64,000 nt of DNA from Gammaproteobacteria bacterium (GTDB lineage Bacteria > Pseudomonadota > Gammaproteobacteria > SZUA-152). This document shows positions 1-64,000 of the stretch, in pieces. Every line of letters starts with the position of its first letter. The stretch's first letter is position 1. Under the pieces are notes generated by a model. That model did not search any database and had not been told where the DNA came from. It was given only the letters and a program-made list of their open reading frames with translations. The position numbers and the translations under genes are program-made. The stretch lies in contig JAKIUF010000002.1 of the NCBI GenBank assembly GCA_021647705.1, forward strand, positions 137,295-201,294. Reading direction: 5' to 3'.

Positions 1-80
1 GGCTCTCGGGCATTTTTCCACCATGATATGCAAGAATATAGTTCGGCATTTCAAATTTCCTTGTTGTTTATATTTCATAA

Positions 81-99
81 TACTTGCATTTTGCAAGTA
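81..99. promoter_or_regulatory. Perfect palindrome TACTTGCATTTTGCAAGTA upstream of the HxlR-family gene; likely operator
   Basis: 19-bp inverted repeat 50 bp upstream of the regulator ORF; HxlR/MarR-type regulators commonly autoregulate through such palindromes. Confidence 0.4.
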
Positions 100-149
100 G
101 GATAATATTAAGTTTTTTGCTTGCTTAATGCAAGTGCTATTATGGGGGT

Positions 150-572
150 ATGAAACGAAATACAAAAAAATATAGATCACACTGTCCGATAAACTTTGCT
201 CAGGAAACATTTGGAGATAAGTGGAGCTTGCTTATCATTCGGGACTTAATGTTTAAGGGCAAAAAATACTATGGTGAATTTTTAAATTCCGATGAAAAAA
301 TATCTACCAATATCCTGGCAGATCGGCTAGAAAAATTAGAGGTAGACGGGCTTTTAACGAAAGCAAGAGATAAAGAAAATAACTCAAAAAATATATACGC
401 CTTAACTCAAAAAGGCGTTGATCTATTGCCTATGCTATTGGAAATGATTGCTTGGTCAGCCAAATATGACAATAAAACAGGAACACCAGCAGAGTTCATA
501 AGGAGATTAACGGAGGATAAGGACTCCCTTATTCGTGAACTGATAGCAGGTCTTGGTAGCCTTAAAACATAA
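150..572 (+). CDS. HxlR-family winged-helix transcriptional regulator
   Basis: CPINFAQETFGDKWSLLIIRDL motif typical of the HxlR/DUF24 HTH family; 140 aa. Confidence 0.75.
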   Translation: MKRNTKKYRSHCPINFAQETFGDKWSLLIIRDLMFKGKKYYGEFLNSDEKISTNILADRLEKLEVDGLLTKARDKENNSKNIYALTQKGVDLLPMLLEMIAWSAKYDNKTGTPAEFIRRLTEDKDSLIRELIAGLGSLKT

Positions 573-578
573 CGCTCT

Positions 579-660
579 CATCAGGGGATTTTAAAGCTAG
601 CGTGGCTTTTGCGGTTTTTTTTGCAAAAGCCACGCTAGCTTTAAAAGTCCCTCTGGATGA
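579..660. repeat. 82-bp near-perfect hairpin (terminator-like or attC-like), preceded by ACATAAC and followed by a conserved 26-mer
   Basis: tcatcagggg / ttaaagctagcgtggcttttgc T8 gcaaaagccacgctagctttaa / ccctctggatga inverted repeats; CATAAC core matches the R'' cores of the right-hand integron attC sites. Confidence 0.5.
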
Positions 661-664
661 GTTT

Positions 665-890
665 GTGTACGCCCAGCATGGGCATGAACTAATGAGGTGA
701 AAGTCCTCTGTAGGAAGATCATCGCCGAACACCGTGTTGTTAGTAGGCGATAACTACTAGCGAATGGCAAGGGCCAGCCCGCGAGGGGCGGTCTGAAGGA
801 AGCCGGACGCACCAACAGTAGGCCCCATGAGGGGAATCTGCGAGCTGATGAACAAGAGCGTCATATGAGGCGTAGGCTGAAGGCGAAAAA
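665..890 (+). other. Possible truncated 5' fragment of a second group II intron (shares the first 26 nt GTGTACGCCCAGCATGGGCATGAACT with the complete intron at 2190)
   Basis: Same 26-mer placed 4 nt after hairpin 1 and 14 nt after hairpin 2; GC-rich, structured, non-coding; diverges after the 26-mer; ends at the MITE. Confidence 0.3.
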
Positions 891-894
891 AACC

Positions 895-943
895 GGGTCA
901 GAGAGCAATTGTTTCTAATATTAGTAAGTATCGCTCTCTGACC
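895..943. repeat. Palindromic MITE-like, bidirectional-terminator-like repeat, copy 1
   Basis: A-run + GGGTCAGAGAGCAATTGTTTCTAATATTAGTAAGTATCGCTCTCTGACC; the same element recurs at 6453 and 7324. Confidence 0.7.
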
Positions 944-993
944 TAACTGTGCAATATTTTTTAAAATCAATCGAGGTTGACCCCATTGATCTT

Positions 994-1410
994 TTAACGC
1001 AACAGATTTTTCAGTTCTTCTATTCTTGCAGTATTCAATCGAATGACACAACTGTTTACGGTGGTTACATAAGCAGGTGTTTCCTTCTCGATCTCGAAAG
1101 CCTCTATTTTGCAAGTTCTATCACGGAAGGTAATCCAAGCATCTTGAGCTTCGCTAACTACCGCAATTAATTCTTTGCCTAGTTTTAGGTCAGCCGCATA
1201 AACGCGCTTTGCGCGTTTCTCAAAATTCACAAATTCAGTCAATAGGAGGGCATTCGAATTCATCATCTCCTTATGTACGCAGTCGTCTAATTGAGGGCTC
1301 GTAGTGATATCTGTGCAATCGAGCTCGTCCGCCAGGAAAATGGTCTTCGTAGGCTGAGCCATGCAGGAGGTGGCAGAGAAAACCAGTAAAAAAATGTGCA
1401 ACAACCTCAT
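994..1410 (-). CDS. DUF1311/LprI-like lysozyme-inhibitor family protein (putative immunity protein), signal peptide
   Basis: N-terminal signal sequence; AQDAWITFRDRTC motif characteristic of DUF1311/LprI; overlaps the upstream lysozyme-like gene by 4 nt. Confidence 0.5.
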   Translation of the reverse strand: MRLLHIFLLVFSATSCMAQPTKTIFLADELDCTDITTSPQLDDCVHKEMMNSNALLLTEFVNFEKRAKRVYAADLKLGKELIAVVSEAQDAWITFRDRTCKIEAFEIEKETPAYVTTVNSCVIRLNTARIEELKNLLR

Positions 1411-2042
1411 TTGTTCGCTCCTGAATTCTTAACTGGCTTGCGACTCTTCAAATATTTGACACGATTGCGTCCAGGCTCATATTGCTTTATTGCCGCCGTC
1501 TCATTGATGTATTTAATTAGTTCGTCAAAGTCGTTATTCATGCCGGCCTTCATAGGGTTGGGTCCTTTGGTAAAGCCCTGATAGACAAAATCAACAAGTA
1601 CGTCTCGAATGGCTTGGTCTAGTTTGTTCCACTCAACTCGACTTTTCTCTGTAGCAGTCCATTTATCATAGTTCTGTTTCGCTCGACTTTCGTAATTAGG
1701 ATATATGTTGTCGAACAACTTGACCTGCTGTGCATGGGTTATCTTTCCTATCGTCTTCTTATGCTTCTCTGCGAACTCCTTTGCCTTGGCCCCCTTAAGT
1801 CCAGCTCCCTCGGATAGTGCCTTTGCGGTATTAGAGGGGATCCCAGCTTTAGTCATGTCTTGCTTAACTACAATTTTCGTGCGGTTACCCATGTCGTATC
1901 CTCGCCCGATTGTGACGCCGGAAAGAGCGTTTCCTGGCCAGTGGATGACTCGACTAAAATATTTCGATGTCTCTGCATCATTTCCTTCTGCATCGAATGT
2001 AATCTGCCCCTTTTTAACTTTAGTAGACATTTTTTCTCTCAA
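1407..2042 (-). CDS. Lysozyme-like (T4-lysozyme/GH24-like) protein, putative toxin
   Basis: FDAEGN...GVTIGRGYDMG resembles the T4 lysozyme catalytic DTEG..TIGIGH region; coupled to the LprI-like gene. Confidence 0.45.
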   Translation of the reverse strand: MREKMSTKVKKGQITFDAEGNDAETSKYFSRVIHWPGNALSGVTIGRGYDMGNRTKIVVKQDMTKAGIPSNTAKALSEGAGLKGAKAKEFAEKHKKTIGKITHAQQVKLFDNIYPNYESRAKQNYDKWTATEKSRVEWNKLDQAIRDVLVDFVYQGFTKGPNPMKAGMNNDFDELIKYINETAAIKQYEPGRNRVKYLKSRKPVKNSGANK

Positions 2043-2103
2043 ATCAATATTGGTTTGTAGATGTTATTGTTTAGTGCTCTGTGCTGCCCAACGTCGCCCA
2101 TAA

Positions 2104-2175
2104 CCGGAATTTTACCGCGTGGTTTGGCTGTGCTAAAAAAGCCTAGCACAGCCAAACCACGCGGTAAAATGTCCG
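2104..2175. repeat. 72-bp near-perfect hairpin (terminator or attC-like), preceded by CCATAAC, immediately upstream of the group II intron
   Basis: cggaatttt / accgcgtggtttggctgtgcta A6 gcctagcacagccaaaccacgcggt / aaaatgtccg; same architecture as hairpin 1. Confidence 0.5.
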
Positions 2176-2189
2176 AGTTGATGGGCCTT

Positions 2190-4198
2190 GTGTACGCCCA
2201 GCATGGGCATGAACTCAATATAGAAATAGAAAAGAAGACACCCAGTGCGCCGAGATAAATCGGTAGTTAATCAATTGGTGAAAGCCCAATACACAGTAAG
2301 AGCTAGCCACTCGCTGTGGCCCCGAGTCATGAGCTGTTATCGAAAGAGACACAGTTAAGCGTTGACAGGGGAACGTACAGGCTCAGTATTGAGCTCCGAA
2401 ATCACATTGAGAACGTTGACCTTGTTGGGTGAAGGGGAAGACCCTATTGATAACCTCGAAAATGGCAAGAGGTTGTCAAGCTCTCCGGAGTCATAGACCT
2501 GGTGCATGTACGAATGTTAACTACGCGGAACTCGGGAGCCCCTGTGTTTGATCAGCGCCAATCCAACCTCTAGTAGGAGGCAATGGTCGGGTTGAGGAAA
2601 TAAACCAAATAATCTCAACATCAACAAACACAGGGAGTCGGACAAAACCATAGTAGTGAAGAAGCAGGCGAACAAAGAGAGCAAGAGGAAAAAAAATGAC
2701 ATATTTCAATCCCCTTTGCCATCAGCGGAGTCAGTGGAGCGAAGGGTTTTGGCTAAGAGAAAGTTTGAGTAAACCCACCGAGACCTTGACGCAGAGCAAG
2801 GAAGAAACAGGCAGGGCACTGCACAGACTACATGAAGTCGCTAAACGAGATTCCCATCTCACATTCAACAACCTGCTACACCATCTGAGTATAGAAAAGC
2901 TCACACGAGCCTACTATGCGCTCAATCGAAAAGCAGCAAAAGGTGTTGATGAGCAAAGCTGGGACGACTATGGAGAAAACCTCCAGGAAAAGGTCAGCGC
3001 ATTACACACAAAACTGCATACCCAACGTTATCAACCACAACCCACAAAACGAGTCTGGATACCCAAAGCGAGCGGTCAACTAAGACCGATAGGCATCACT
3101 GCCATCGAGGATAAAGTGGTGCAGCAAGCCTTAGTCTGGGTGATGGAGTCGATATACGAAGCAGACTTTCTGGGTTTCAGCTACGGCTTCAGGCCAAATC
3201 GAAACCCACATCAGGCGCTGGACGTTGTCTACATTGCATTGACGGAAAAGAAAGTAAGCTGGGTGCTGGATGCCGACATACAAGGATTCTTCGATCACAT
3301 AGATCATGGCTGGATGATGAAATTCATTGAGCATCGGATCAGTGATAAAAGAATACTGGGACTACTGAAAAAGATACTAAAAGCAGGTGTGATAGAAGAA
3401 GGGAAATGGTCAAAGACGCGGATTGGAACCCCGCAAGGAGCTGTTATATCACCGCTACTAGCGAATATATACCTGCACTACGTCCTAGACCTATGGGCAC
3501 ATCAGTGGCGAAGAAAATACGCGCGAGGTGAAGTCTACATCGTACGATACGCCGACGATTTTGTACTGGGTTTCCAGTACAGAATAGACGGTGAACATTT
3601 TCACCAAGCCCTGATAGAAAGACTGAAATGCTTTGGACTGACATTGCACCCAGAGAAAACACGACTCATTGAATTTGGTCGGTTCGCTGAAAGCAATAGA
3701 AGAGAAAGAGGAGCGGGTAAGCCGGAAACATTTGATTTTCTAGGCTTCACGCACCTGTGCAGCAACAAGCGAAACAATAAAGGATTTAGCGTGCGCCGAC
3801 AGACCATCAGCAAAAGGCTGAGAGCCACGGTAAAAAGGATCAAAGAACAGCTGAAAAGAAACAACATGTTCAATGTTCACCGGCAGGGACGCTGGCTTCG
3901 CAAGGTGATGCAAGGTTTGATTAACTATTATGGCGTACCGGGAAACAGCACCGCGTTGGCAAGGCTGCGAACGGAAATGTGTTGTAACTGGCGAAAGTCA
4001 TTAAGGCGTCGAGGAAACAAAAGGCCGATAAACTGGCTGCAAATGACGAAGTTAATCAACCGCTGGATACCCAAAGTCAGCGTGGTTCACCCATACCCGA
4101 ATCAGCGGCGTTGTGTTTGACTCGAAGCAGGAGCCGGATGCGTTAGTAGCGCAAGTCCGGATCTGCGCCGGAGGCCTGACAAATGAGAACTGTAATGA
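2190..4198 (+). mobile_element. Group II intron (bacterial class C-like; reverse transcriptase without an En domain); boundaries approximate
   Basis: 5' GTGTACGCCCAGCATGGGCATG resembles the Ll.LtrB 5' end GTGCGCCCAGATAGGGTG (an alternative 5' end is GTGCG at 2245); ORF in domain IV; domain V-like GAGCCGGATGCG..CGCAAGTCCGGATC with AGC triad and 2-nt bulge at 4128-4165; sits right after a hairpin. Confidence 0.7.
2696..4120 (+). CDS. ltrA: Group II intron reverse transcriptase/maturase (intron-encoded protein)
   Basis: RT motifs (RPIGITAIEDKVVQQA, FDHIDH, YADDFVLG, TQGAVISPLLANIYL) and X/maturase domain; no C-terminal HNH/En domain. Confidence 0.9.
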   Translation: MTYFNPLCHQRSQWSEGFWLRESLSKPTETLTQSKEETGRALHRLHEVAKRDSHLTFNNLLHHLSIEKLTRAYYALNRKAAKGVDEQSWDDYGENLQEKVSALHTKLHTQRYQPQPTKRVWIPKASGQLRPIGITAIEDKVVQQALVWVMESIYEADFLGFSYGFRPNRNPHQALDVVYIALTEKKVSWVLDADIQGFFDHIDHGWMMKFIEHRISDKRILGLLKKILKAGVIEEGKWSKTRIGTPQGAVISPLLANIYLHYVLDLWAHQWRRKYARGEVYIVRYADDFVLGFQYRIDGEHFHQALIERLKCFGLTLHPEKTRLIEFGRFAESNRRERGAGKPETFDFLGFTHLCSNKRNNKGFSVRRQTISKRLRATVKRIKEQLKRNNMFNVHRQGRWLRKVMQGLINYYGVPGNSTALARLRTEMCCNWRKSLRRRGNKRPINWLQMTKLINRWIPKVSVVHPYPNQRRCV

Positions 4199-4399
4199 AA
4201 AAAAAAATTACAGAGCTTGTGAGTTGGGGCTTTACGGCAACTCAAATGAAAGCTTTGCATAAACCCCTTCCTCATTTACAACAACATGGTTAAAAATTGA
4301 TGCTTTTACCAGACACGGCAAAAAATCGAAAAATTTCCGGCAAACAAACTGGTTTTTTAGATCACAGGCAACAGGAGTCCCTCGCCATCCACCCAAGCG

Positions 4400-5551
4400 A
4401 CCTGAAAATAGAAAAATGAAGAAATGACTGGGTGCTATGTAGGTAAAGGTTGTCTTTGTTTATAAACACACTTTCCCACAGACTGACCTTTCAACCAGCA
4501 CTGACCTAATTGATCAGCAAACTGCCTGATTTTGTCCATTGCGCCCACCGCCCGAAAAAACCGCTGTTCGTAGTGGTTAATCATATCCAGCCAGCCCTGT
4601 TGCTCAATCCCCAGCCTGGACAAAATGGGAGGCAGGTTATCGGAAATAGCCCCGATTTTATCATCACGAACTGCCCGGCCGGTCCAGTCCACCAACTCCA
4701 GATAATCCGGGAATGAAAAAGCGATGCCTTCAGGCTGGTTGTTGCGTTCGTCACCGATGAAATCAACCAGTCTGACAGGTGTTTGAGCTATTTGTGATGG
4801 GGCTTGATCACGTTCAGGGGTTGAGGCTTGATGAGTTCGTATTCGCGCCTGAATCGATGTGTAATCGGATGCTTCCGGGCTGGGGTTGATGCCAGCCCGT
4901 ATAGGGTTAAGGTCCACATAGCTCATACAGGTGAGCAAGGCCTGTTCATCCAGCAAAGCCTGACTTTTGTAACGCCCTTCCCAGAATCGTCCCGTGCAGC
5001 GGTCTTCTGCATTGGCCTGTCGGGCGAGAGATTCATTTAAACAGCGCATGAACCAGCCCAGATCCATCAAACGGCTACGCCATTCCTGTACAAGCTCAGC
5101 AACCAGTTTCTTCTCTGCCTTACCCTGTCGCTCTCCTTTCTTCATTTGATCAATTAACAGCGGTGCCTTGAATAACGTGGTCCAGTGTTCAATCACTTCA
5201 TCATCAGACCATGCCACAGCTTGAGGCTGATTGATGTGCAGAACCAAATGGTAATGATTGCTCATGACAGCGTAGGCACAGACATCGATAGAAAAAACGT
5301 CGGCCAGTTCAGCGAGCTTATCCACTACCCATTGTTTGCGGTGTTCATAACTTTGTCCAGAGAACTCGTCTTTTCCGCAGAGAAAGGCGCGGCGAACACA
5401 GCGCGAGATGCAATGGTAATAAGGGGTTGAATCCAGGCAGACCTGGTTTTTGCGAGGTTTTGGCATCCGTGCCTCCTTCATGTGAATTGTACGCCTTGCA
5501 ATCTAACGAGGATCAGCCAGAGTGTCAATTAATTGATGGGTGTCTCTATTT
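4400..5551 (-). mobile_element. IS200/IS605-family-like insertion sequence (Y1 HUH transposase), copy 1; left boundary uncertain
   Basis: Right end defined by identity with the inverted second copy at 63644 onward (GATGGGTGTC terminus); carries one transposase ORF. Confidence 0.55.
4435..5481 (-). CDS. tnpA: HUH (Y1) transposase, IS200/IS605 or REP-associated tyrosine transposase-like
   Basis: HYHLVLH (HUH) motif, GRYKS catalytic tyrosine region, YHCISRCVRRAF N-terminal motif; 348 aa; second copy starts at 63729. Confidence 0.7.
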   Translation of the reverse strand: MKEARMPKPRKNQVCLDSTPYYHCISRCVRRAFLCGKDEFSGQSYEHRKQWVVDKLAELADVFSIDVCAYAVMSNHYHLVLHINQPQAVAWSDDEVIEHWTTLFKAPLLIDQMKKGERQGKAEKKLVAELVQEWRSRLMDLGWFMRCLNESLARQANAEDRCTGRFWEGRYKSQALLDEQALLTCMSYVDLNPIRAGINPSPEASDYTSIQARIRTHQASTPERDQAPSQIAQTPVRLVDFIGDERNNQPEGIAFSFPDYLELVDWTGRAVRDDKIGAISDNLPPILSRLGIEQQGWLDMINHYEQRFFRAVGAMDKIRQFADQLGQCWLKGQSVGKCVYKQRQPLPT

Positions 5552-5944
5552 TCTCTATTTTCAAGTTGTCCAATTGCCCATCTTCTGATCCAGAGCATAA
5601 AGTACCATAAAAACAATATGTTGTAAGTGTTATATTTATTCGAAAAAGTTAAATCTCTTCGGGTTTTATTCCCCGCCGCTTGCGGCGTAAGGTTGGAAAA
5701 AACCAAGGGTAGCTATATACGAAGCTTTATGAAAGCTATCAGCTGGCACCGTTTGTAAGAATACCCCGCTTTCGCGTAGCGAAAGTCGAGCTTAAGCGAG
5801 AGGGCTTGCCCCGGGGATTTTTATTCTCAACCTGTGGTTGATTTTTCGAAACTAGGGAATGCCCCATTTTGTCAAATATTATTGTGTTATGGTTTTGCTT
5901 TCATAGCTGGTTATTTAGCCAGTTTAATTTTACAGGAGGTGGCC

Positions 5945-6442
5945 ATGGATTCGGCAGTTTCTTCTTCTCCCTTTTTACGTTCTGTTGTTGAGGCTATTTG
6001 CGTGCGACATTACAGCATCCGTACGGAAAAGGCTTATATTAACTGGATCAAGCGATTTATTCTTTTTCATGACAAACGTCACCCCGCTAAAATGGGAGGC
6101 GTGGAGGTTGGGGATTTTTTGACCGATTTGGCGATGAATCGACAGGTGTCGCCCAGTACACAGAATCAGGGGTTAAATGCGCTGAATTTTTTGTACAAGG
6201 TGGTTTTGGAGCAACCATTGGGGGATGTGAAAAATTTGGTGCGGGCAAAGAACAAGCGTAAATTACCGGTGGTATTAACGGTTGATGAGGTGAGGGCGGC
6301 GGTGTTGCGTGAATTGAATGGGGTGCAGTGGCTGGCAGCTTGTTTAATGTATGGTTCTGGCTTGCGATTGATGGAGTGTTTACGTTTGCGGGTGATGAAT
6401 CTTGATTTTTTGCACCGCGCAGTTTATGTGCGCATATGGTAA
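5945..6442 (+). pseudogene. intI: Integron integrase intI, N-terminal about 165 aa fragment truncated by MITE copy 2
   Basis: [51 protein letters not shown] matches the N-terminal half of IntI and the right-hand intI; ends abruptly at the repeat at 6453. Confidence 0.65.
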
Positions 6443-6452
6443 AGAAAAAACC

Positions 6453-6499
6453 GGGTCAGAGTAATACTTACTAATATTAGAAACAATTGCTCTCTGACC
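6453..6499. repeat. Palindromic MITE-like repeat, copy 2 (inverted relative to copy 1), abutting the truncated intI
   Basis: GGGTCAGAGTAATACTTACTAATATTAGAAACAATTGCTCTCTGACC flanked by A-run and T-run. Confidence 0.7.
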
Positions 6500-6562
6500 T
6501 GGGTTTTTACGCCACAAAATGAAATCGATCGTGCCTGCTCCCCTTGGTCTTTATAGACGCTG

Positions 6563-6820
6563 CTATCTATTTTTGACCAATTTATTATGATACAGATCTT
6601 CAATGGGGAAAATCATTGTGTAATCATCCCAGTTTAAATTACCATCAATAATTTCAAACTTCAAAAACTCATCAATTGACTTATATTTTTCATAATCAGG
6701 ATGTCCACTTGAAAATATGAAAATAGAAAAATCTACATATGCATGATGACCATCAGAAAATTCAATATCTAATATATGACTAGTTTTATGTTTAGCTGAT
6801 TTTACCAATAATTCTGACAT
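6563..6820 (-). CDS. DUF2442-family small protein (partner of DUF4160)
   Basis: 85 aa; overlaps the upstream DUF4160 gene; typical two-gene DUF4160/DUF2442 module. Confidence 0.5.
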   Translation of the reverse strand: MSELLVKSAKHKTSHILDIEFSDGHHAYVDFSIFIFSSGHPDYEKYKSIDEFLKFEIIDGNLNWDDYTMIFPIEDLYHNKLVKNR

Positions 6821-7118
6821 TACGCACCTTTTGTGTTACATACGTCGGAGAAACATGCATTTTTTTAACAAAATAGTCTACCCATTTTTCTACAATATCT
6901 TCTGCATAGCAATTTACAAACCCTTCAAATTCTTTACGTTTTTTTGGCTCTAAGCCAGGACCTTTATCTTTTAGTACTATTTTATTAATTTTTCCATTTA
7001 AAAAATGAATCTCTGCTTTGGTTTCTTTGCCATTGTGTTTTCCATGAATATGTATAGGTTCGTGTTCATTGCTGTAAAAGAAAAAAACAATCCCAAAGTA
7101 TTCGTATATTTTCGGCAT
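6792..7118 (-). CDS. DUF4160-family small protein
   Basis: MPKIYEYFGIVFFFYSNEHEPIHIHGKH N-terminus is the DUF4160 signature. Confidence 0.55.
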   Translation of the reverse strand: MPKIYEYFGIVFFFYSNEHEPIHIHGKHNGKETKAEIHFLNGKINKIVLKDKGPGLEPKKRKEFEGFVNCYAEDIVEKWVDYFVKKMHVSPTYVTQKVRNVRIIGKIS

Positions 7119-7231
7119 AGATAACTCCTTTTTTGATTAAACTAAATTGCATTAGATAATGGAATCAGACTCGATTGATTTTCAATCTTGCGCCAATATT
7201 TCTTTTGAATTCTCGCCATTTCACTTACTTA

Positions 7232-7309
7232 ACTCCTCTACATTTTTGCCGCAGCAAAAAGCTCCGAGGGCTTAAGGTCTAGAACAAACGCAATACGGCG
7301 AATATTCAG
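7232..7309 (-). pseudogene. Remnant of the 3' end of an XRE-family regulator gene (paralogous to 8312..8542)
   Basis: About 78 bp, about 85% identical to 8312-8390; encodes ..[22 protein letters not shown]; no N-terminal part; bounded by MITE copy 3. Confidence 0.45.
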
Positions 7310-7323
7310 AAGATGAAAAACTC

Positions 7324-7377
7324 GGGTTAGAGAGCAATACTTATTAATATTAGAAACAATTGCTCTCTCTCTGACCC
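7324..7377. repeat. Palindromic MITE-like repeat, copy 3
   Basis: A-run + GGGTTAGAGAGCAATACTTATTAATATTAGAAACAATTGCTCTCTCTCTGACCC + T-run. Confidence 0.7.
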
Positions 7378-7480
7378 GGGTTTTTCTTTTAGAGACATAT
7401 TGAATTTCTAGTATTATTGCTAACGGCCAAGCTCAGCCTCGCCGTTTTTTGGCGTCGACTGGAGCGCATGGTTCGCTGCG

Positions 7481-7879
7481 TTATTCAAAGTAGCTCCGTA
7501 AACGCTGTGCCAATTTACTGGACTGTTTGTCGTATTGCTGTTGATGCGTGGTGATTGCTATTGGGCCGATGCGCGTCACCCCACGCGCTTTCAGGTGCTG
7601 CGCCAAGATATCTATAACTTTTTTCCCGTAGCCTCGACCCCGAAATGCTGAATCGATCCACCAGCCAGGTTGAACGTCATTTAGGCCGGATGCCTCAACT
7701 AGCGCAACCAACCGACCTGATGTTTCCTCGAATAAAGCGAAAAGTCCAGATTCATAAGCAGCCCAGACTTGCGGCGGCCCCAAATCATTTCGGTGCTCTG
7801 ACAAAGATAGCCGCTCTTGAATCAACTTTGACTGGGCTGGTGAAAGTACGGATTTCTCAATCATGACTAAGCATCTCAT
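7481..7879 (-). CDS. GNAT-family N-acetyltransferase
   Basis: IDSAFRGRGYGKKVIDILAQHL acetyl-CoA binding motif (R/Q-x-x-G-x-G/A). Confidence 0.75.
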   Translation of the reverse strand: MRCLVMIEKSVLSPAQSKLIQERLSLSEHRNDLGPPQVWAAYESGLFALFEETSGRLVALVEASGLNDVQPGWWIDSAFRGRGYGKKVIDILAQHLKARGVTRIGPIAITTHQQQYDKQSSKLAQRLRSYFE

Positions 7880-8311
7880 TCAAGCAGCTAACGTCTAAAT
7901 GTCTGTTGGACTATACCGCCTCTACCGGGTCAGCAGACTATGGGGATTGTATTGAAAGCGATAGGGCTTGTCGAAGGGCGATAATACCGTTTTGGTTGTG
8001 GTCATGTTTGACAAGGCCATTTTCTTAACCATTTTCAGGTTTGTCACTCATTCAGTCTGTTTGTTGTTTAACACGTTATCATCAGGTCACCGTCCATACA
8101 ACGGGGTTGCTGGGGTTTCAGAACACACCTGAAGTCGGCCCTTTTTACATTTTGGGCAGAGACAGGTGGCGGATGTTATTCCGTATCTGTTTTTGTTTCC
8201 GGTTCACGTGGCGGTGCTTGCAGGCACTGACGGATGATCGCCAGCTTTTGCTTTCGGCTGAGGTTGGATAAAAACTCGTAATGCCAATAGCTATCGTATT
8301 AATTAATTTCT

Positions 8312-8542
8312 CTACATTTTTGCCGCAGCAAAAAGTTCCGAGAGCTTAAGCTCCAAAACAGATGCAATACGGCGGATATTCAGAAGCGAAACGTTTCTTT
8401 CGCCTCGCTCGATAGCCCCCATGTAAGTACGGTGCATTCCACACAAGCTGGCAAAATTCTCTTGCGACAGCTCAAGAGCCTCCCGTTTTTTTCGGATCGT
8501 TGTCCCAAGCGACTTTTGGGCCTGTTTTTGAGTAATTTCCAT
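8312..8542 (-). CDS. XRE-family helix-turn-helix transcriptional regulator
   Basis: [37 protein letters not shown] motif; start assumed at MEITQKQ. Confidence 0.7.
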
Positions 8543-8650
8543 CAGGCCAGTATCTGGAATGAAGACTATAAATCTACACATTATAAGTAGCAATTTTTGT
8601 GATGCGGCATATAATGCTACTTATAGTCTTCAAAAAGGGAATTCAGGAAA

Positions 8651-9358
8651 ATGAAAATACTCATCGCCGAAAACAATTCAGCCGCTCGCATGCACCATCG
8701 GGAGCGGTTAGTCAGTTGGGGGTATGATTTTGATCTGGCTGCCAACGGCAAAGAGGCCATTGATTTTTTTCATAAAAATGGAGCACGTTACGATCTTTGT
8801 CTGATGACTGTGAACCTGCCAGCAATGGAGGGTATCAAGGCCATTCGGGCGATCAGGAAAGGGGCGGGTTATCTCCCGGTTATCGCCTGTAGTACAAATT
8901 CGAACTATAAGGCGTGTTGCCTGGAGGCGGGTGCCGATGATTTTTTGGTGAAGCCTTTTGTCTCTGAGAGTTTGAAGGAAAAGCTGGAGGAATTTTCGGT
9001 AAAGCAGGTTGTGCTTTATCTGGAGCGTGAGCGCTTGTCATTACATACGGTTGGCCCTGTCAACCGTGCAGAGCTGAATGAGTTGAGGGCGCTGGATCAA
9101 AAGGGGTTGACGAAATTTATGATTGCGGATGTTTCTTGCCATTTTGTTGCGCAGGGTGCGCGGCATAAGTTGTTTGATGATTTTAATAATGGTGATTCGG
9201 TGTTTACTGAAATACTGGACCGCACTCGGCACGAGCATAGTATTGTGCAGATTCATGCATCACAAATATCGGTGCGAAAAGTGGGGCTGACTCCTGAGCA
9301 TTTTCAGCAGTTGGTTGAGAAGGAGAATGAGATGTTGAAAAAGTATGAGGAGCCTTAA
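8651..9358 (+). CDS. Response-regulator receiver-domain protein with degenerate phospho-acceptor region and an unknown C-terminal domain
   Basis: CheY-like fold (MKILIAENN..); the conserved Asp position reads LCLMTVNLPAMEG, so it may be a pseudo-receiver; no recognisable DNA-binding output. Confidence 0.5.
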   Translation: MKILIAENNSAARMHHRERLVSWGYDFDLAANGKEAIDFFHKNGARYDLCLMTVNLPAMEGIKAIRAIRKGAGYLPVIACSTNSNYKACCLEAGADDFLVKPFVSESLKEKLEEFSVKQVVLYLERERLSLHTVGPVNRAELNELRALDQKGLTKFMIADVSCHFVAQGARHKLFDDFNNGDSVFTEILDRTRHEHSIVQIHASQISVRKVGLTPEHFQQLVEKENEMLKKYEEP

Positions 9359-9556
9359 AAATGAATCAAGCGTTGAGTCTGATCGGTGTTTTCCGCGTGG
9401 GCACTATAAAGGCGTGCCCACCCTACGGCTAAACTAAAGCCTGTAGGTTTAAATTTCTGGGTTCCGGCTAAGACCATACGGAATGACGGGTTTTTTTCAG
9501 GGGGTTGTGGAGGGTTTGGCCTTGGGCGTTGAAACAGCCTTTCTGAGTTTCACGGT

Positions 9557-12500
9557 TCAGGCTGTTTTCACTTCTCTGTTTTTTGCATCTTCACCAATGC
9601 GTAGCAGGCTTGGTAATAGTATCAGTGTAAACACGGTGCTTACACTCATGCCGCCGACGATGACGGCAGCAAGCCCGCGATAGAGTTCTGTGCCAGCACC
9701 GGGTATCAGCAGTAGTGGCAGCATGCCAAAGATACTGGTGAGTGTGCTCATGAGGATGGGGCGTAACCGCAAGTGTACGGCTTGATTCACTGCGTCACGA
9801 CGTTTTAATCCTTCACGTTCGGCGGTGCGTGTTTGGTACACGAGCAAAATGGCGTTGTTGACCACCAGCCCCAGCAAAATAATAAAGCCAATCATGGTGA
9901 GCAGGTCCATGTGCTGGGTGGTGAACAGGTTGACAATGTGCAAGGCCAGTACGCCGCCGACAGTGGCCAGCGGTATGGCCAGAATCACCAGCAGGCTGTC
10001 GCGGAAGGAGCGGAATAATGCGCTCATTAATAAATACAAAATAGCGATGGCCAGCAGGAAGCTTGCGCTCATGCTTTTCAGGGCGAGGTCCAGTTTTTCT
10101 GCGGTGCCGCTGTAGTGAATTTCGCCGTCTTCCGGTAACAGTGGTTCAATTTTTGGGTTCACCTCTTCTTTGAGCACCAGCATGGTTTGTTCCAGCGACA
10201 TGCCTTCCGGGGCTTTGACTTCCAGGGTGATGGTGCGCCGACGATTGAGGCGGCGGATTTCGTCAGGCCCGGCGGTGCGCACGACTTCTGTCAGTTCACT
10301 TAACGGGAGTACGCCACTGTTGGGGGTTGCCAAGGGTATGGCGGCCAGTTCTTCGGGGGTTTGCCAGTCTTGTCCACGCAGGATGATGTCCAGTCGTTGT
10401 TGGCCGTCAAAATAATCGCCCACAAACAGGCCGTCTCCTAATGCGCGAATAATTTGCGACACATCACTGCGTGCCCAGCCTGCTTCGCTGATACGGCGCT
10501 CATCCGGCAGTAGTCGCAATTCCGGTTCGGCAAGGCTGAGTCCGGGGCGCGGGCGTGGTGGACGTCCGGGAATGGTTTGCATCACGGCGGAAAAACCGGC
10601 CTGTGCCGAGTCGAGTAATGCGTCGATGTTTGAGCCCTGGATGTCGATGTCTACGGTACGACCACCACCAAAACCACCGAACAGCGAAGAGCGCTGGGCA
10701 AAGGCGATGGTGTCCGGGAAGCTGCCGATGAGCCGGTTGATTAGTGGCACCAGTTCGTCGGATTTGTCCGGGTCTATGGTGCGTGCGCCCATAAACACGC
10801 CCGAGCCGAAGGCGACGAAGAAGTAGTTGTCCACGGCGGGTTCGGCTGTGCCGTCAACGTAGGGTTGCATGCGTTGCGCGACGACCTGACCCAGTTCTTT
10901 TTCCAGTGTATCTACGCTGCTGCCGGGGGGTGGCAGGATAAATGCAAATACCAGATTGCGATTGCCGTTGGGCAGGAAATCCGCTTCAGGTTTGAGCCAT
11001 ACTGCGAGCATTAGGGGGAGGGTGATCAGGCCGAGAATCCATAATGCGCGCCGCCGGGGGGTGTCGGTGAGGCGCATGACAAAATTGCTGCCTGCATCCC
11101 ACCAGTGGGCATGCGGGTCGTGCATGTTGATGTTGCGTAACCAGGTGGACGCTGCTGCGGGCAATACGGTGACGGCCACTAGCAGCGATATGCTCACGGT
11201 GGCAGCAATGGTTAATGCCAGATCAGCAAACAGTTGTCCTGCTTCGTCTTTTAAAAAGACGATGGGTAAAAAGATGGCAACGGTGGTGGCGGTGGAGGCC
11301 AGTAACGCGCCCCATACTTTGCGGGTGCCTTCGTCGGCGGCCTCTGCGCTGGACATGCCGCGTTCACGCAGGCGCACGATGCTTTCCAGTACCACGATGG
11401 CAGCATCCAGCACCATGCCCACGGCAAAAGCTAGGCCCGCCAGCGAAATAACATTGAGGGTGCGGCCTGTCGCATCCAGCAACATGAAGGTGGACACCAC
11501 GCAGATGGGAATGGCAACGGCTACCATTAGCGTGGCGCGGAATTTGCGGAAGAACCACCACAGTACGCCCACGGCAAGCAATATGCCTAACAGCAGGTTG
11601 TTGGATACCATGTTAATGGAGCGGTCGATGTAACGGGTTTCATCGTAAACCTGTTCAAAGCTTAAACCGGCGCGCTTTAGCGAACCTTCGCGCAGTTCTT
11701 CGGCGGCCTGACGCAGGCCTGCCATCACTTCCAATACGTTGACACCGGTTTCGCGGTGCGCGTTAACCGCCATTGCTGCCTGGCCGTTTTGAATCACAAA
11801 GCCGGTACGGTCCACCATGCGTACGTCGATGTCAGCGACATCACGCAAATACACCGGTTGGCCTTCACGCCATTCCAGTACCATTTCGCCCAGGTCATCC
11901 ACGTTGTACTGTCCGGCAAAGCGCAGGGTGTAACGGCGTTTGCCCACGTCGGCAAAGCCGCCTGAGGTATTTTTTGCACCACCGGCCAGTTGCGCGACTC
12001 TGGGCAGTTCGATGCCCAGACTGGCTGCCTTGTACGGATCAAAGGTGATGCGCAGTTCACTTTCGCGCCCGCCGCGTACTTCGGACATGGCAACGCCGGG
12101 TATCCGTTCGAAGCGTGTTTGTACGACTTCTTCGACATAATTTTGATAGCTGGCGACATCACGGTCATTGCCTGCTACCGGTTTAAGAATAAACCAGGCT
12201 ATTGCACGGGAGCGGCCACCGATGGAATTGATGACAGGCTCGTTGGCATCAGCAGGGTAACGTTGCACACGATTGAGGCGCGATAACACTTCCAGCAGCG
12301 CACGACGCAGATCCGTACCCACCTGAAAGGTGAGGGTAATGCTGCCACGCCCGCGTTGCGCACGGGCAAGAATTTTGGTCATGCCCGGCAGACCGCGTAA
12401 TACGTCTTCCTGCGGTTCCACAATTTCCGATTCCACCTCTTCCGGTGCAGCGGCACGCCAGACGGTGGTGATGGTGATTTCGGGGAGTTCGACTTCGGGG

Positions 12501-20160: not shown

Positions 20161-20278
20161 TGGGATTTTTGCATAAAAACTACGTTGAAGAGATGCAGTG
20201 TTATTAACACAGAGTGTGTAGAGCACACGCTCCCTTTTTTATGTGTATATGCTGGCTGGGTTTGAATAATGAAAATCC

Positions 20279-20413
20279 AACGCAAAGGCGCGAAGACGCA
20301 GAGGGCGCAAAGTTTTTAGTGTTTTTCTCTGCGCCCTTTGCGCCTCTGCGACCTCTGCGTTAAATACCCGGTGATGCTTAAAACAGATATTTTTAGCGCT
20401 TAATTCACATTTA
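20279..20413. repeat. REP-like palindromic repeat, copy B
   Basis: cgcaaaggcgcgaagacgcagagggcgcaaag .. ctttgcgcctctgcgacctctgcgtt .. TTTTTAGCGCTTAATTCACATTT. Confidence 0.6.
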
Positions 20414-46529: not shown

Positions 46530-46596
46530 TCAGCGGTCTTTATTGGTCCCGCAATTTTCCTGATTGCGGGCAAGATGTTAGAATTTCCCACGTTTG

Positions 46597-46672
<76 letters not shown>

Positions 46673-49848: not shown

Positions 49849-49924
49849 TGGCAAGTGCGCTACCCGGTAGGCGGTCTCACTGTTAATGAGGTGTATGCCG
49901 GTTCGAGTCCGGCCTTGCCAGCCA
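49849..49924 (+). tRNA. tRNA-Asn(GUU)
   Basis: Hand-folded cloverleaf: acceptor TGGCAAG/CTTGCCA, anticodon arm TCTCA-CTGTTAA-TGAGG, T arm GCCGG-TTCGAGT-CCGGC, ends GCCA. Confidence 0.65.
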
Positions 49925-49953
49925 ATTAACTGTCTGAAAAGGAGGTATAGAAA

Positions 49954-50142
49954 ATGAAGGTGATGAAGCTAGAGAGACGATTTGAATCATTAATCGCGAC
50001 GATGAATGTACCTCAAACCCGAAAGAAAGGAACTGCAATTAATGCATTGTGGTTTTTAAGGGATGGGGCAATTGCTAACAGAACACATAAAAATGTTCAT
50101 GAAGCCAGTGAGATTGCGGTGAAATTAGCTAACGCTCATTAA
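49954..50142 (+). CDS. Hypothetical 62-aa protein inside the tRNA array (strong SD)
   Basis: AAAGGAGG 8 nt upstream of ATG. Confidence 0.4.
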   Translation: MKVMKLERRFESLIATMNVPQTRKKGTAINALWFLRDGAIANRTHKNVHEASEIAVKLANAH

Positions 50143-50169
50143 CGAAGAATGAATTTATTAAGCAGTATA

Positions 50170-50242
50170 TGCACCTGTAGCTGAGTCGGAATAGCGCGAC
50201 ACTGAAAATGTCGAAACGGTCGTTCAATTTGTCCCAGGTGCA
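50170..50242 (+). tRNA. tRNA-Phe(GAA)-like, probably degenerate (imperfect T-stem, no encoded CCA)
   Basis: Perfect acceptor GCACCTG/CAGGTGC, D arm, anticodon arm CGACA-CTGAAAA-TGTCG; T-arm pairs poorly. Confidence 0.4.
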
Positions 50243-50250
50243 TCAGATAT

Positions 50251-50327
50251 GGCCCGTTAGCATAGTGGTTGGATGCAAACGATTGTCAGGCGTGAGATCG
50301 CGGATTTAAATTCCGCACGGGCCGCCA
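50251..50327 (+). tRNA. tRNA-Asp(GUC)-like, degenerate (weak anticodon stem, T-loop TTTAAAT)
   Basis: Perfect acceptor GGCCCGT/ACGGGCC plus GCCA, D arm GCAT/ATGC, loop TTGTCAG gives anticodon GTC. Confidence 0.35.
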
Positions 50328-50586
50328 GTAGCGCCGCAGGTAATGACAGTAAACAACTTGTGAGCACGGCTGAAATATAGCCAAGGTGTGAACCAGAGGA
50401 CTTGGCCATTTGTTAATCCTCAGTTGGTTGTTTAACCAAAAAGTAGGTATGGCGCAGTTATTGATGAAATGGGGCGACCATTACTTGCGGTTTTTTTTAA
50501 AGTCACATTCGCTAAGCTGGCAGGGTTCTCAATCAATAATCGAGGGATCCCTGGTTGAGGCTTAGGATGTGGCACCAATGATTAAT

Positions 50587-50663
50587 GGTGAAAGTAGCTT
50601 AATGGGTAAAGCTTCTGATTGTGAATCAGATAGATGCCGGATCATCCCCGGTCTTTCACCCCA
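50587..50663 (+). tRNA. tRNA-His(GUG) with G-1, C73 and encoded CCA
   Basis: G-1 + GTGAAAG/CTTTCAC acceptor, anticodon arm TCTGA-TTGTGAA-TCAGA, C73, CCA; T-loop ATCATCC is non-canonical. Confidence 0.6.
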
Positions 50664-50696
50664 TTATTATTTAAATAATAAAAGGGAAAAGAAATT

Positions 50697-50772
50697 GGGT
50701 TGCTAGCTCAACTGGCAGAGCAATCGCCTTTTAAGCGATAGGTTCGGGGATCGTTCTCCCGGCAGCCCACCA
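50697..50772 (+). tRNA. tRNA-Lys(UUU)
   Basis: Acceptor GGGTTGC/GCAGCCC, D arm GCTC-AACTGGCA-GAGC, anticodon arm ATCGC-CTTTTAA-GCGAT, ACCA end; T-loop ATCGTTC unusual. Confidence 0.6.
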
Positions 50773-50927
50773 AACATCACATGTTACATCATTGTAATGT
50801 GATAACAGCGTTGAAACAGCACTGCATTGTTCAGCGGTTCAGGTTCTGTATGCCTGGCCTGCGCACCAACACTTAGCGAAAGCAATCGTACGGTGTGTAC
50901 AGATCAATTGTGGTGATTTCGACATCC

Positions 50928-51001
50928 ACCAGGATAGCTCAGTTGGGTAGAGCAACTGATTTTTAATCAGTTTGTCGCAGGTTCGATTCCTGCTCCAGGC
51001 A
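50928..51001 (+). tRNA. tRNA-Lys(UUU)-like with two acceptor-stem mismatches (possible pseudogene or att remnant)
   Basis: D arm GCTC-AGTTGGGTA-GAGC, anticodon arm ACTGA-TTTTTAA-TCAGT, canonical T arm GCAGG-TTCGATT-CCTGC; acceptor ACCAGGA/TCCAGGC mismatched; no CCA. Confidence 0.35.
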
Positions 51002-58493: not shown

Positions 58494-58767
58494 TGTGTAT
58501 TCCAGAGGGTGTCTTGAAGGGTTCGCCAACGCAAAGCGGCGCAACACGGTGTTCAATAAACGTGTAATGATAACGTAGGTAACCTTTAACGGTTGAAAAT
58601 ATTTAACCTGGGTGTTGCAAGTAACGGGTTTGTGGGCACATCCTGTGGGTTATCATTTTCCCCGTCATTTTGGCGCAGGCCGGAATCCAGAGGTTTACTC
58701 TCTCGGGCGAGCATTCCGGTACATTGGGAGCTTATGTTGTCGTGGCACTGACAAGTGGTGTGTTATA

Positions 58768-58888
58768 AACGCAGAGACGCAAAGAAAAACATTAAAAACT
58801 CTGCGTTCTTTGCGACCTCTGCGTTAAATGCCCGGTAGCCTTTTAAAAGTAGCGTGTTTTTAGCGCTTAATTCACATTTTAACATCAG
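58768..58888. repeat. REP-like palindromic repeat, copy D (between xthA and intI)
   Basis: aaacgcagagacgcaaag..ctctgcgttctttgcgacctctgcgttaaatgcccgg..TTTTTAGCGCTTAATTCACATTTT. Confidence 0.6.
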
Positions 58889-58915: not shown

Positions 58916-59849
58916 CTATCCGGACAAAACCGCACCCAATGGACTCACCACCGCATTTCCGCCCCGGTTCAGTACATGGGTATAGATTTGAGTGGTACGC
59001 ACATCTTTATGCCCCAACTGTTCCTGCACCGTTCGGATATCCATGCCCCGCTCCAGCAAATGCGTGGCAAAAGAATGACGCAACGTATGACAACTGGCGG
59101 GCTTGTGAATCCCCGCCTTGCGAATCGCCTTCTCATCAAAATGATGCCGCCGTTCCACGCCCGAACGAGGATCAATACTGCCACGCCCATTCCGTTGGCG
59201 CATTGGGATATTTTCGTGCCAGAGCATGGGGAAGGTAAACACTGCCAAAACCATCTGCCAAATCTTTATCGTGCGTTTGTCGTCGATTTTCCAGGTGTCG
59301 TTGCAAAGGCACAATCAACTCATCTGACAGCGTCACTACCCGGTCTTTCCCTCCTTTAGCGTTATGCACATAAATCGCACAGCGCAAAAAATCAAGATTC
59401 ATCACCCGCAAGCGTAAACATTCCATCAATCGCAAACCGGAACCGTACATCAAACAGGCCGCAAGCCAATAAAGACCATCCAGCCCTTGTAGAACCGCTT
59501 GTACCTCTTCACGCGTCAACACCACCGGAATCTTTTGCCGTGTTTTGGCGCGCGCCACCCCTTTCAAGCCCTCAATGGGCTGGTCCAACACCACGCGATA
59601 AAGAAACATCAAGGCATTAAAAGCCTGATTCTGTGTACTGGGGGCAACATTTCGATCTACCGCCAAATGCGTCAAAAATGCTGTTACTTCCCGTGCCCCC
59701 ATTTCACGAGGATGCTGTTTGTTATGGAAATAGATAAACCGCTTCACCCAGCCGCTATCAGCTTTTTCGGTTTTCCGGCTGTAATGACGCACACGAATTG
59801 CATCCGAAATCGAACACAGGAAAGGCGAAGAATAATTTGTCGAATCCAT
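58916..59849 (-). pseudogene. intI: Integron integrase intI with apparent frameshift near 59175-59200
   Basis: N-terminal 225-aa ORF (..[17 protein letters not shown]) and overlapping C-terminal ORF (..[50 protein letters not shown]) in different frames; IntI-specific extra domain present. Confidence 0.8.
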
Positions 59850-62778: not shown

Positions 62779-63039
62779 TTATTGTGGAGTGATGATTAAT
62801 CGATTTTGAGTAACTTGTACACAAATAGGAAGCCCAATAACAAAGCCAGATTCTTCAAGCCATGTTCCTTTGAGTAAAATAAAAGGAGTTTTAGGGTTGC
62901 CTTTATGAGGCGCGGATTTTAAGCAATAGTCACGATGCCCTTCTCGAACTATAATATGACGTTTATTCATGATTATTTCCTTGTGCAAATGGTTAAAAAC
63001 CACCACCGCCAAGGTACGAATCTTAGGGTGGTGGGCCAT
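62779..63039 (-). CDS. symE: SymE-family type I toxin-like protein (SOS-induced toxin family)
   Basis: ..RDYCLKSAPHKGNPKTPFILLKGTWLEESGFVIGLPICVQVTQNRLIITPQ resembles the E. coli SymE core [42 protein letters not shown]. Confidence 0.55.
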   Translation of the reverse strand: MAHHPKIRTLAVVVFNHLHKEIIMNKRHIIVREGHRDYCLKSAPHKGNPKTPFILLKGTWLEESGFVIGLPICVQVTQNRLIITPQ

Positions 63040-63260
63040 ATGAGGTTCGTACTACCGCGCACAAGGAACGGCCACCCGAAGGTGCCCCATACAGCCCACC
63101 GTAAAAGGGGGCAAGCCACAAAAAAAGACGCTGGCTACAATGTAGGCGTCTTTCAGGTGGCACCTTGTGTCTTGCGGGGTACGAATCCCGGCCTGATTTA
63201 CATCAAGCAAATCAACTGTAATTTAATGAGTTGGCTCTGTCAACATCGTGCCAAAATATG

Positions 63261-63375: not shown

Positions 63376-63645
63376 ATGGTTAATTTTGTAAAATTATGGA
63401 ATAGCCACCCAACCGTAGAATCATTTATAGATGATTTCCCATGTAAGAAAAATGGCAAGAAGGCATTTGACAATCAGTGTGCAATTCGCATTGGAGTGGC
63501 ATTCGAAAAAACTGGTGTCAACCTTAAGTCATTCAAAGGTGCCAAATGTTGGCATAGTCATAAGCCAGCACATATTTTGCGCGCAGAAGAAATAGAAAAT
63601 TGGCTAAAAGGTCCATTTTCGCCTTTTAAAAACATAACAGAATAA
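63376..63645 (+). CDS. Tae4-like amidase effector N-terminal fragment, truncated by IS insertion
   Basis: NQCAIRIGVAFEKTG resembles the Tae4 catalytic-Cys region NACPIRMSYVLNATG; 89 aa against about 160 for full Tae4; the stop codon is supplied by the IS terminus. Confidence 0.4.
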   Translation: MVNFVKLWNSHPTVESFIDDFPCKKNGKKAFDNQCAIRIGVAFEKTGVNLKSFKGAKCWHSHKPAHILRAEEIENWLKGPFSPFKNITE

Positions 63646-64000
63646 AATAGGACACCCATCAATTAATTGACACTCTGGTCGATCCTCGTTAGATTGCAAG
63701 GCGTACAATTCACATGAAGGAGGCACGGATGCCAAAACCCCGCAAAAATCAGGTCTGCCTGGATTCAACCCCTTATTACCATTGCATCTCGCGCTGTGTA
63801 CGTCGTGCCTTTCTCTGTGGCAAAGACGAGTTCTCCGGCCAAAACTACGAACACCGGAAACAATGGGTTGTCGATAAACTCGCTGAATTAACCCGTGTTT
63901 TTTCTATCGACGTTTGTGCCTACGCTGTCATGAGTAATCATTACCATTTAGTCCTGCACATCAATCAGCCTCAAGCTTTGGCATGGTCTGATGATGAAGT
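63644..64000 (+). mobile_element. Second copy of the IS200/IS605-like element, inverted relative to copy 1, continuing beyond the window
   Basis: 63652-63728 is the reverse complement of 5481-5549; transposase ORF from 63729 almost identical to 4435..5481. Confidence 0.7.
63729..64000 (+). CDS. tnpA: HUH (Y1) transposase, partial (runs off the window)
   Basis: MPKPRKNQVCLDSTPYYHCISRCVRRAFLCGKDEFSGQNYEHRKQWVVDKLAEL.. near-identical to the copy-1 transposase. Confidence 0.7.
   Translation, partial: MPKPRKNQVCLDSTPYYHCISRCVRRAFLCGKDEFSGQNYEHRKQWVVDKLAELTRVFSIDVCAYAVMSNHYHLVLHINQPQALAWSDDE

Follow-up and report, generated by a model that had tools for sequence, protein, structure and literature searches.

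Near the left end of a 64-kb stretch of gammaproteobacterial DNA (the window, in which positions are counted from the first nucleotide) lie two overlapping genes on the minus strand, referred to here as the toxin gene and the immunity gene. They probably constitute an interbacterial effector-immunity module that is carried as an integron cassette. The open reading frame (ORF) of the toxin extends over 1407..2042 if read from a TTG start. An ATG at 2030 is preceded by GAGAG and, judging from the sequence, is the more likely start, giving a gene at 1407..2030 and a protein of 207 amino acids. The immunity ORF occupies 994..1410 and encodes 138 amino acids. Both ORFs, as well as the ATGA at 1407..1410 that serves as toxin stop and immunity start, had been described in an initial annotation of this DNA and were confirmed by direct reading of the sequence. 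The identical four-nucleotide overlap occurs in the related loci L003, L004 and L005 and in many further ones, and would allow translational coupling of the two genes. Upstream of the toxin gene, a promoter scan found nothing convincing: the total number of matches was close to that expected from shuffled sequence, and one 9-of-12 match lies inside a hairpin. The G+C content of the cassette is 42.9%, as against 48.7% in the core of the window.

The toxin has a molecular mass of 23.3 kDa and is basic, with an isoelectric point (pI) of 9.8. Its sequence matches the Pesticin family PF16754 with 33.3 bits (cut-off 25.8) over residues 39-155 of the 211-residue form that starts at the TTG, and an identical protein is named "pesticin C-terminus-like muramidase" by NCBI. 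A sequence search of the PDB returned pesticin as the only match, a weak one. An AlphaFold model built from 58 homologues has a mean predicted local distance difference test score (pLDDT) of 94. Upon comparison of this model with the PDB using Foldseek, the best 11 matches were pesticin chains (4arm/4epf/4aqn), followed by T4 lysozyme. The pesticin matches have E values of 1e-5 to 5e-4 and template modelling (TM) scores, normalised by the query, of 0.59-0.63. The protein is thus predicted to be a stand-alone pesticin-type N-acetylmuramidase.

The catalytic residues of pesticin, E178, T201 and D207, are named by the inactive mutants E178A, T201A and D207A. T201 and D207 align exactly with T40 and D46 of the toxin. 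The equivalent of E178 appears to be E15, which lies in an invariant "AEG" corresponding to "FE178G" of pesticin. This assignment is less direct because the toxin is about eight residues longer than pesticin in the stretch from the catalytic Glu to the conserved H-x-P motif. E15, T40 and D46 are invariant across the 58 homologues and are proposed to be the catalytic residues. The initial annotation had assigned the protein a T4-lysozyme-like catalytic signature. The quoted motifs are present, as FDAEGND and SGVTIGRGYD, and the lysozyme fold is borne out by the model, which is near both pesticin and T4 lysozyme. The order of the catalytic residues, however, is not that of T4 lysozyme (Glu11, Asp20, Thr26) but that of pesticin, in which the Glu is followed by a Thr and, six residues on, by an Asp.

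The immunity protein belongs to the LprI/DUF1311 family. It matches PF07007 with 41.0 bits, well above the cut-off of 22, and phmmer relates it to the DUF1311 crystal structure 3gi7 with an E value of 0.0018. The N-terminus, MRLLHIFLLVFSATSCMAQP, is hydrophobic, with a maximum 11-residue hydropathy of 2.48, and is a typical export signal, whereas the corresponding value at the toxin N-terminus is 0.32 and the toxin has no signal peptide. In its mature form the immunity protein has a mass of about 14 kDa and is acidic (pI 5.1), its partner being basic. Its model is a three-helix bundle with a pLDDT of about 98 over residues 38-135, and was superimposed by Foldseek onto 3gi7 with a target-normalised TM score of 0.91 and a root mean square deviation of 1.4 Å. 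Five cysteines, C16, C32, C44, C100 and C121, are invariant among the homologues compared (16 for Cys16). The location of Cys16 within SATSC suggests that it might be a lipobox cysteine, which would make the protein a lipoprotein; the other four are consistent with periplasmic disulfides. The downstream product is therefore a signal-peptide protein of the LprI/DUF1311 family, as had been claimed. The initial annotation was to be abandoned if the upstream protein had no lysozyme-fold match and the downstream protein no DUF1311 match, and both matches were found.

A scan for relatives of the toxin, taking one genome per species, gave 80 loci. In 55 of these phmmer detected an LprI gene immediately downstream of the toxin gene (56 adjacent pairs in all). 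Among 19 remaining downstream ORFs that were examined with Pfam, six are also LprI, so that at least 61 of the 80 loci are paired. Across the loci the identity to the window pair decreases from 86% to 45% for the toxin and from 73% to 19% for the immunity protein. By these figures divergence is faster on the immunity side, as is usual for immunity proteins. The toxin is conserved as a stand-alone gene in several genomes at 76-86% identity. Loci L031, L033, L048 and L070 have extra LprI genes in tandem, and several enterobacterial loci have two or three. Such tandem genes look like the orphan immunity arrays described for the hcp islands of Pantoea (PMC9796082). A distant Pseudomonas clade of the toxin (L073, L074, L076, L078-L080 and L082; 42-47% identity) is followed by a gene for a signal-peptide protein of 155-182 amino acids that is not LprI, probably another immunity family for the same toxin fold.

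The toxin domain occurs in a variety of delivery contexts. In Vibrio hepatarius (L027) it forms the C-terminus of a VgrG spike, in which VgrG, PG_binding_1 and Pesticin domains are followed by a downstream LprI ORF of 127 amino acids; this domain is 58% identical to the window toxin. In a Shewanella protein (L054) it follows a Pyocin_S domain, in Pseudomonas and Burkholderia proteins of 750-1000 amino acids it follows M23 or SH3 regions, and in Pantoea and Erwinia proteins it follows PG_binding_1. Three of the 19 loci lacking a phmmer LprI match, L026, L064 and L077, have vgrG directly downstream, as assigned by the N-terminal sequences. A 6.2-kb ColE1-like mobilizable plasmid (L093, NZ_CP074164.1, 2322-4912) encodes a 734-residue form of the toxin together with an overlapping "lysozyme inhibitor LprI family protein", a pair that looks like an uncharacterised colicin-like bacteriocin of Enterobacter. 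A stand-alone relative of 205 amino acids, 78% identical to the window toxin and accompanied by an LprI gene, is situated between tssA and tssB of a type VI secretion system (T6SS) cluster that also has tssJ, K, L and M. Since LprI follows the domain in at least 61 of 80 loci and the domain is found on such varied delivery modules, the window pair is, as far as sequence comparison can tell, a polymorphic interbacterial toxin with its immunity protein. The peptidoglycan-hydrolase effector with a periplasmic immunity protein that had been suggested at the outset finds support in sequence profiles, predicted folds and gene neighbourhoods alike.

Experimentally characterised counterparts are known from Vibrio. 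TssI2 of V. fluvialis and VgrG3cp of V. cholerae are VgrG proteins with a C-terminal pesticin domain, are T6SS-dependent and are toxic only in the periplasm (PMC9620997, PMC9927483). TssI2 requires a Glu, a Thr and an Asp that match the pesticin catalytic residues; VgrG3cp retains just the Thr and the Asp, and its Asp867 was shown to be essential (PMC9620997, PMC9927483). Immunity is conferred in each case by a small neutralising protein that is encoded downstream, TsiI2 for TssI2 and TsiV3cp for VgrG3cp. TsiI2 is a 127-residue periplasmic protein with a Sec signal and binds with a dissociation constant of 1 nM (PMC9620997, PMC9927483). The window pair shares with these systems the pesticin-type muramidase domain with Glu, Thr and Asp, the Sec-exported immunity protein encoded immediately downstream, and the expected action in the periplasm. 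It differs in that the toxin is a stand-alone domain of 207 amino acids and not a C-terminal extension of VgrG, lacks a peptidoglycan-binding domain, and is found in a probable integron cassette rather than in a T6SS cluster.

Pesticin and its immunity protein Pim, encoded on Yersinia pestis pPCP1, resemble the window pair in the catalytic fold and residues and in the combination of a toxin with a periplasmic immunity protein. Pesticin, however, has N-terminal receptor-binding (Pesticin_RB) and translocation domains for FyuA/TonB uptake, and the pesticin and Pim genes are convergent, whereas those of the window overlap. Pim was considered as the family of the window immunity protein and was rejected, being PF16765 and not LprI.

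The same pairing of toxin and immunity families has been predicted in T6SS islands. The hcp islands of Pantoea, including that of Pantoea sp. OV426, carry a predicted lysozyme-like effector with LprI immunity genes (PMC9796082); the OV426 locus is L070 of the present set, with 48% identity and three tandem LprI genes. In a study of WHIX proteins, 448 effectors were found to have a pesticin-like C-terminus, and DUF1311 proteins were among the neighbouring immunity candidates (PMC12135965). Unlike the window toxin, the Pantoea and WHIX proteins have PG_binding_1 or WHIX delivery regions and are located in T6SS islands, and the pairing reported there is a prediction (PMC9796082, PMC12135965). The WHIX effector that was tested, Awe1, has a FlgJ-like and not a pesticin-like C-terminal domain, and hence the study does not validate the pesticin-LprI pairing (PMC12135965).

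The initial annotation placed the pair in a cassette array, and this is correct; more exactly, it is an integron cassette array. On its upstream side the pair is bounded by a hairpin (hairpin 2, 2096..2186), presumably the attC stem of the preceding cassette. Its arms, 2109-2135 and 2144-2170, are 27 nucleotides long and 100% complementary, and this perfect 27-base-pair stem is lengthened by a bulged stem. The DNA fold has an energy of -44.9 kcal/mol and a z-score of -11.6. The 5' end of the toxin-immunity cassette (2031..2092, minus strand) consists of a core GTTGGGC (2092..2086) and a conserved leader that continues up to the toxin ATG. Downstream of the pair, a second hairpin (hairpin 1, 577..660, arms 583-612 and 623-652), with an energy of -37.3 kcal/mol and a z-score of -10.8, is presumably the attC site of the toxin-immunity cassette itself. 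When folded as plus-strand DNA, both hairpins are very stable and their three bulges all fall on the 3' arm, an asymmetry shared with the bottom strands of the attC sites at L003.

L003, a Cellvibrionaceae metagenome-assembled genome, carries the orthologous pair, with 86% identity in the toxin and 73% in the immunity protein. There the pair is flanked by canonical attC sites at 3473-3590 and 4766-4853 (GCATAAC...GTTAGGC and GCCTAAC...GTTAACT). The DNA homology between the L003 cassette and the window begins at the core site, the GTTGGGC of the window being aligned to GTTAGGC. In L087 the orthologous pair is followed by five uniform 122-nucleotide attC repeats ending in GTTGGGC.

Both hairpins are followed by group II intron sequence. 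A full-length intron lies immediately after hairpin 2, at 2188..4222 of the plus strand (its 3' end being approximate), and is thus oriented opposite to the cassette genes. It matches the Rfam model group-II-D1D4-6 with 163.8 bits at 2281-2500 and contains a reverse transcriptase/maturase gene at 2696..4120 that scores 364 bits on TIGR04416. A sequence at 4223-4230 (GTTGGGGC), near the approximate 3' end, is a possible R'' box. A 5' fragment of a second intron copy (663..884, plus strand) follows hairpin 1, lies between it and the immunity gene, and is cut off by a palindromic repeat. The 5' ends of the two introns are identical over 28 nucleotides (663-690 and 2188-2215). With a permissive threshold, Rfam finds a weak group II match within the fragment at 775-841, and gives only spurious microRNA-precursor matches on hairpins 1 and 2. 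Introns of the group IIC-attC class are reported to enter attC sites on the bottom strand, so that they lie between a gene and its attC and run against the direction of cassette transcription (PMC3001079), and the arrangement in the window fits that description. A 28-nucleotide sequence just downstream of the immunity gene, at 960-987, recurs in inverted orientation at 7158-7185 with 82% complementarity, near another copy of the palindromic repeat; this sequence may be the 3' end of a degraded intron or part of a composite element.

The palindromic repeat resembles a miniature inverted-repeat transposable element (MITE). It is about 70 nucleotides long (AAAAACCGGGTCAGAGAG...CTCTCTGACCCGGGTTTTT) and occurs in three copies within 7 kb, at 885-943, 6443-6513 and 7316-7389. 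The copy at 885-943 bounds the pair on the 3' side, so that the pair lies between a hairpin and a MITE copy, as had been noticed initially. These repeats were considered as the attC sites of the array and were rejected, since AAC/GTT boxes are missing from their arms and the integrase gene is truncated by one of the copies. This gene, at 5945..6442 of the plus strand, encodes the N-terminal half of an integron integrase, matching positions 1-153 of 315 of TIGR02249 with 184 bits, compared to 45 bits for XerC. It points away from the left array, whose genes are on the minus strand, as is expected of cassettes. Taken together, these features suggest that the two genes belong to a single integron cassette of about 1.25 kb, with hairpin 1 as its own attC, and that the intron fragment and the repeat have been inserted between the genes and that site.

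The probable interpretation of the locus is therefore an interbacterial effector-immunity module carried as an integron cassette. The toxin, lacking a signal peptide, would be made in the cytoplasm, away from its substrate. Once in the periplasm of a neighbouring cell, it would act as a pesticin-type N-acetylmuramidase and cleave the peptidoglycan glycan strands, with Glu15, Thr40 and Asp46 as its catalytic residues. Delivery would most likely be by a T6SS, with the toxin as a small cargo effector. The immunity protein would be exported by its signal peptide, possibly anchored as a lipoprotein through Cys16, and would adopt the three-helix DUF1311 fold, stabilised by disulfides. A one-to-one complex with the toxin is expected, in which the immunity protein would block the active-site groove and so protect the producer and its kin. 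The ATGA overlap would couple the translation of the two genes. We infer both the enzymatic activity of the toxin and its direct binding by the immunity protein. The two genes would travel as one cassette, now apparently left behind in a decaying array together with a truncated integrase, group IIC introns, an insertion sequence (IS) and the MITE-like repeats.

Several observations weigh against this interpretation. The toxin has no recognisable delivery domain, nor room for one, and no adaptor gene. No T6SS gene was found among the scanned ORFs of the window, many of those in its middle part having been judged by size only; a T6SS route in the source organism is suggested by analogy with the relatives. 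The papers on the Vibrio systems do not call the immunity proteins DUF1311, and the link between those systems and the window pair would come only from the architecture of L027 and its LprI match. A strict scan of positions 1-10000 for RYYYAAC...GTTRRRY, combined with folding, gave only chance matches inside coding regions, and a looser attC scan of the whole window found the sites of a second, right-hand array and missed hairpins 1 and 2. Because of this, the attC status of the two hairpins rests on the homology to L003, the intron, the integrase and the bulge pattern, from which we infer that they are functional attC sites. Finally, the cassette may no longer be mobile, since both integrases of the window are disrupted.

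The absence of a delivery domain from the toxin and of T6SS genes from the scanned ORFs would also be explained if the pair were an orphan remnant of a diffusible colicin- or pyocin-like bacteriocin, of which only the killing domain and the immunity gene are left. The toxin would then never be exported, and the module would persist chiefly for the protection that the immunity protein gives against related toxins of neighbours. The 734-residue protein with its LprI gene on the ColE1-like plasmid, and the fusion to Pyocin_S, show that the same domain does occur in molecules of this kind. The toxin ORF, however, is intact and retains all catalytic residues, and it persists as a stand-alone gene at 76-86% identity in several genomes, in one of them inside a T6SS cluster. 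Moreover, small T6SS cargo effectors require no delivery domain. This origin is accordingly regarded as unlikely.

Much less probable still is that the pair, instead of being a weapon, serves housekeeping or stress-related remodelling of the cell wall, the enzyme being accompanied by a periplasmic regulator or a general lysozyme inhibitor. LprI of Mycobacterium tuberculosis has been described as a lysozyme inhibitor (work cited in PMC12135965), and an effect on cell-wall homeostasis has been reported for a Salmonella LprI-domain protein (PMC7933661). Without a signal peptide, though, the toxin cannot reach the wall of the organism that makes it. The module is also patchy in distribution, mobile and, in relatives, flanked by attC sites. 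Related toxin domains are fused to VgrG and pyocin domains, and the immunity protein is fast-evolving and occurs in orphan arrays. The idea of a phage endolysin and an accessory protein from a degraded prophage, to which the shared fold with T4 lysozyme and the PG_binding_1 region of some relatives (as in many endolysins) lend some colour, can be set aside almost entirely, since the partner, a signal-peptide DUF1311 protein, is neither a holin nor a spanin, the vicinity contains no phage genes, and the toxin matches no PHROGs family and, by tblastn, none of 50,697 phage records.

With the effector-immunity module as the preferred interpretation, the protein pair itself adds little, both proteins being named correctly by NCBI already. 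Effectors with a pesticin domain and a periplasmic immunity protein are known from experiment, and the window pair is a new and minimal form of them. The toxin of 207 amino acids, free of any delivery domain and with close relatives in a T6SS cluster and in integron arrays, might serve as a convenient model for the loading of a bare muramidase domain onto a secretion system. Only the probable carriage as an integron cassette is unusual, and its interest is modest. The attC-flanked copies suggest integron recombination as a route by which weapon-antidote modules spread between genomes. Such spread would connect integron biology with interbacterial antagonism, and can be tested by standard excision and competition assays.

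Two-gene cassettes of a toxin and its antidote are familiar from the toxin-antitoxin cassettes of sedentary chromosomal integrons, which the window pair would resemble in being a single cassette of a chromosomal array. In the classical cassettes, however, the toxin acts in the cytoplasm of the producer and the antitoxin is cytoplasmic, whereas the target of the window toxin is periplasmic and the antidote is exported. Any "addiction" caused by the window pair would for this reason act between cells and not within one. If so, the cassette could stabilise the array between cells, since a sibling that loses the cassette also loses immunity and would be killed by its kin. It is conceivable, though on present evidence somewhat doubtful, that integrons act more widely as a shuffling reservoir for interbacterial weapons, in which whole T6SS-type effector-immunity modules are captured and mobilised as single attC-bounded cassettes. 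No description of effector-immunity modules as integron cassettes emerged from literature searches, and a 2017 paper on effector-immunity arrays of Vibrio states that evidence of their insertion by an integrase was lacking (PMC5361080).

A second integron is situated at the right end of the window. It has a frameshifted intI gene at 58916-59849 (minus strand), in which the frameshift separates model positions 1-216 from 222-313, an attI-like GTTAGAT, and cassettes on the plus strand whose attC sites are clear. One of these cassettes, at 63376-63645 (plus strand), contains a fragment of the T6SS amidase effector Tae4, which matches profile positions 1-54 of 125 of PF14113 with 35.6 bits and is cut by an IS-like element starting near 63650. 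The fragment fits the reservoir pattern, and the presence within 64 kb of two T6SS-type effectors directed at peptidoglycan, both in integrons, suggests that this is not an accident.

The two integrase genes of the window are inverted relative to each other, both are disrupted, and each faces away from its own array. The element that interrupts Tae4 is likewise present in two inverted copies, at 4435-5545 (minus strand) and 63650-64000 (plus strand), one inserted in each cassette array. It encodes a protein of 348 amino acids with a weak match to REP-associated tyrosine transposase and to IS200-like Y1 transposase. The right-hand array also contains a SymE-type toxin gene at 62779-63039 (minus strand; PF08845, 45 bits), which adjoins a match to the C4 antisense RNA at 63024-63106 (minus strand; Rfam, 59.1 bits). 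Outside the arrays there are two long GC-rich palindromes, at 20275-20365 and about 58740-58830, which share the ending CTCTGCGACCTCTGCGTTAAAT; the first folds with -57 kcal/mol on the minus strand (ViennaRNA, RNA parameters). In the core of the window, six tRNA genes are clustered at 49849-51001 (plus strand), and a seventh lies at 46596-46669.

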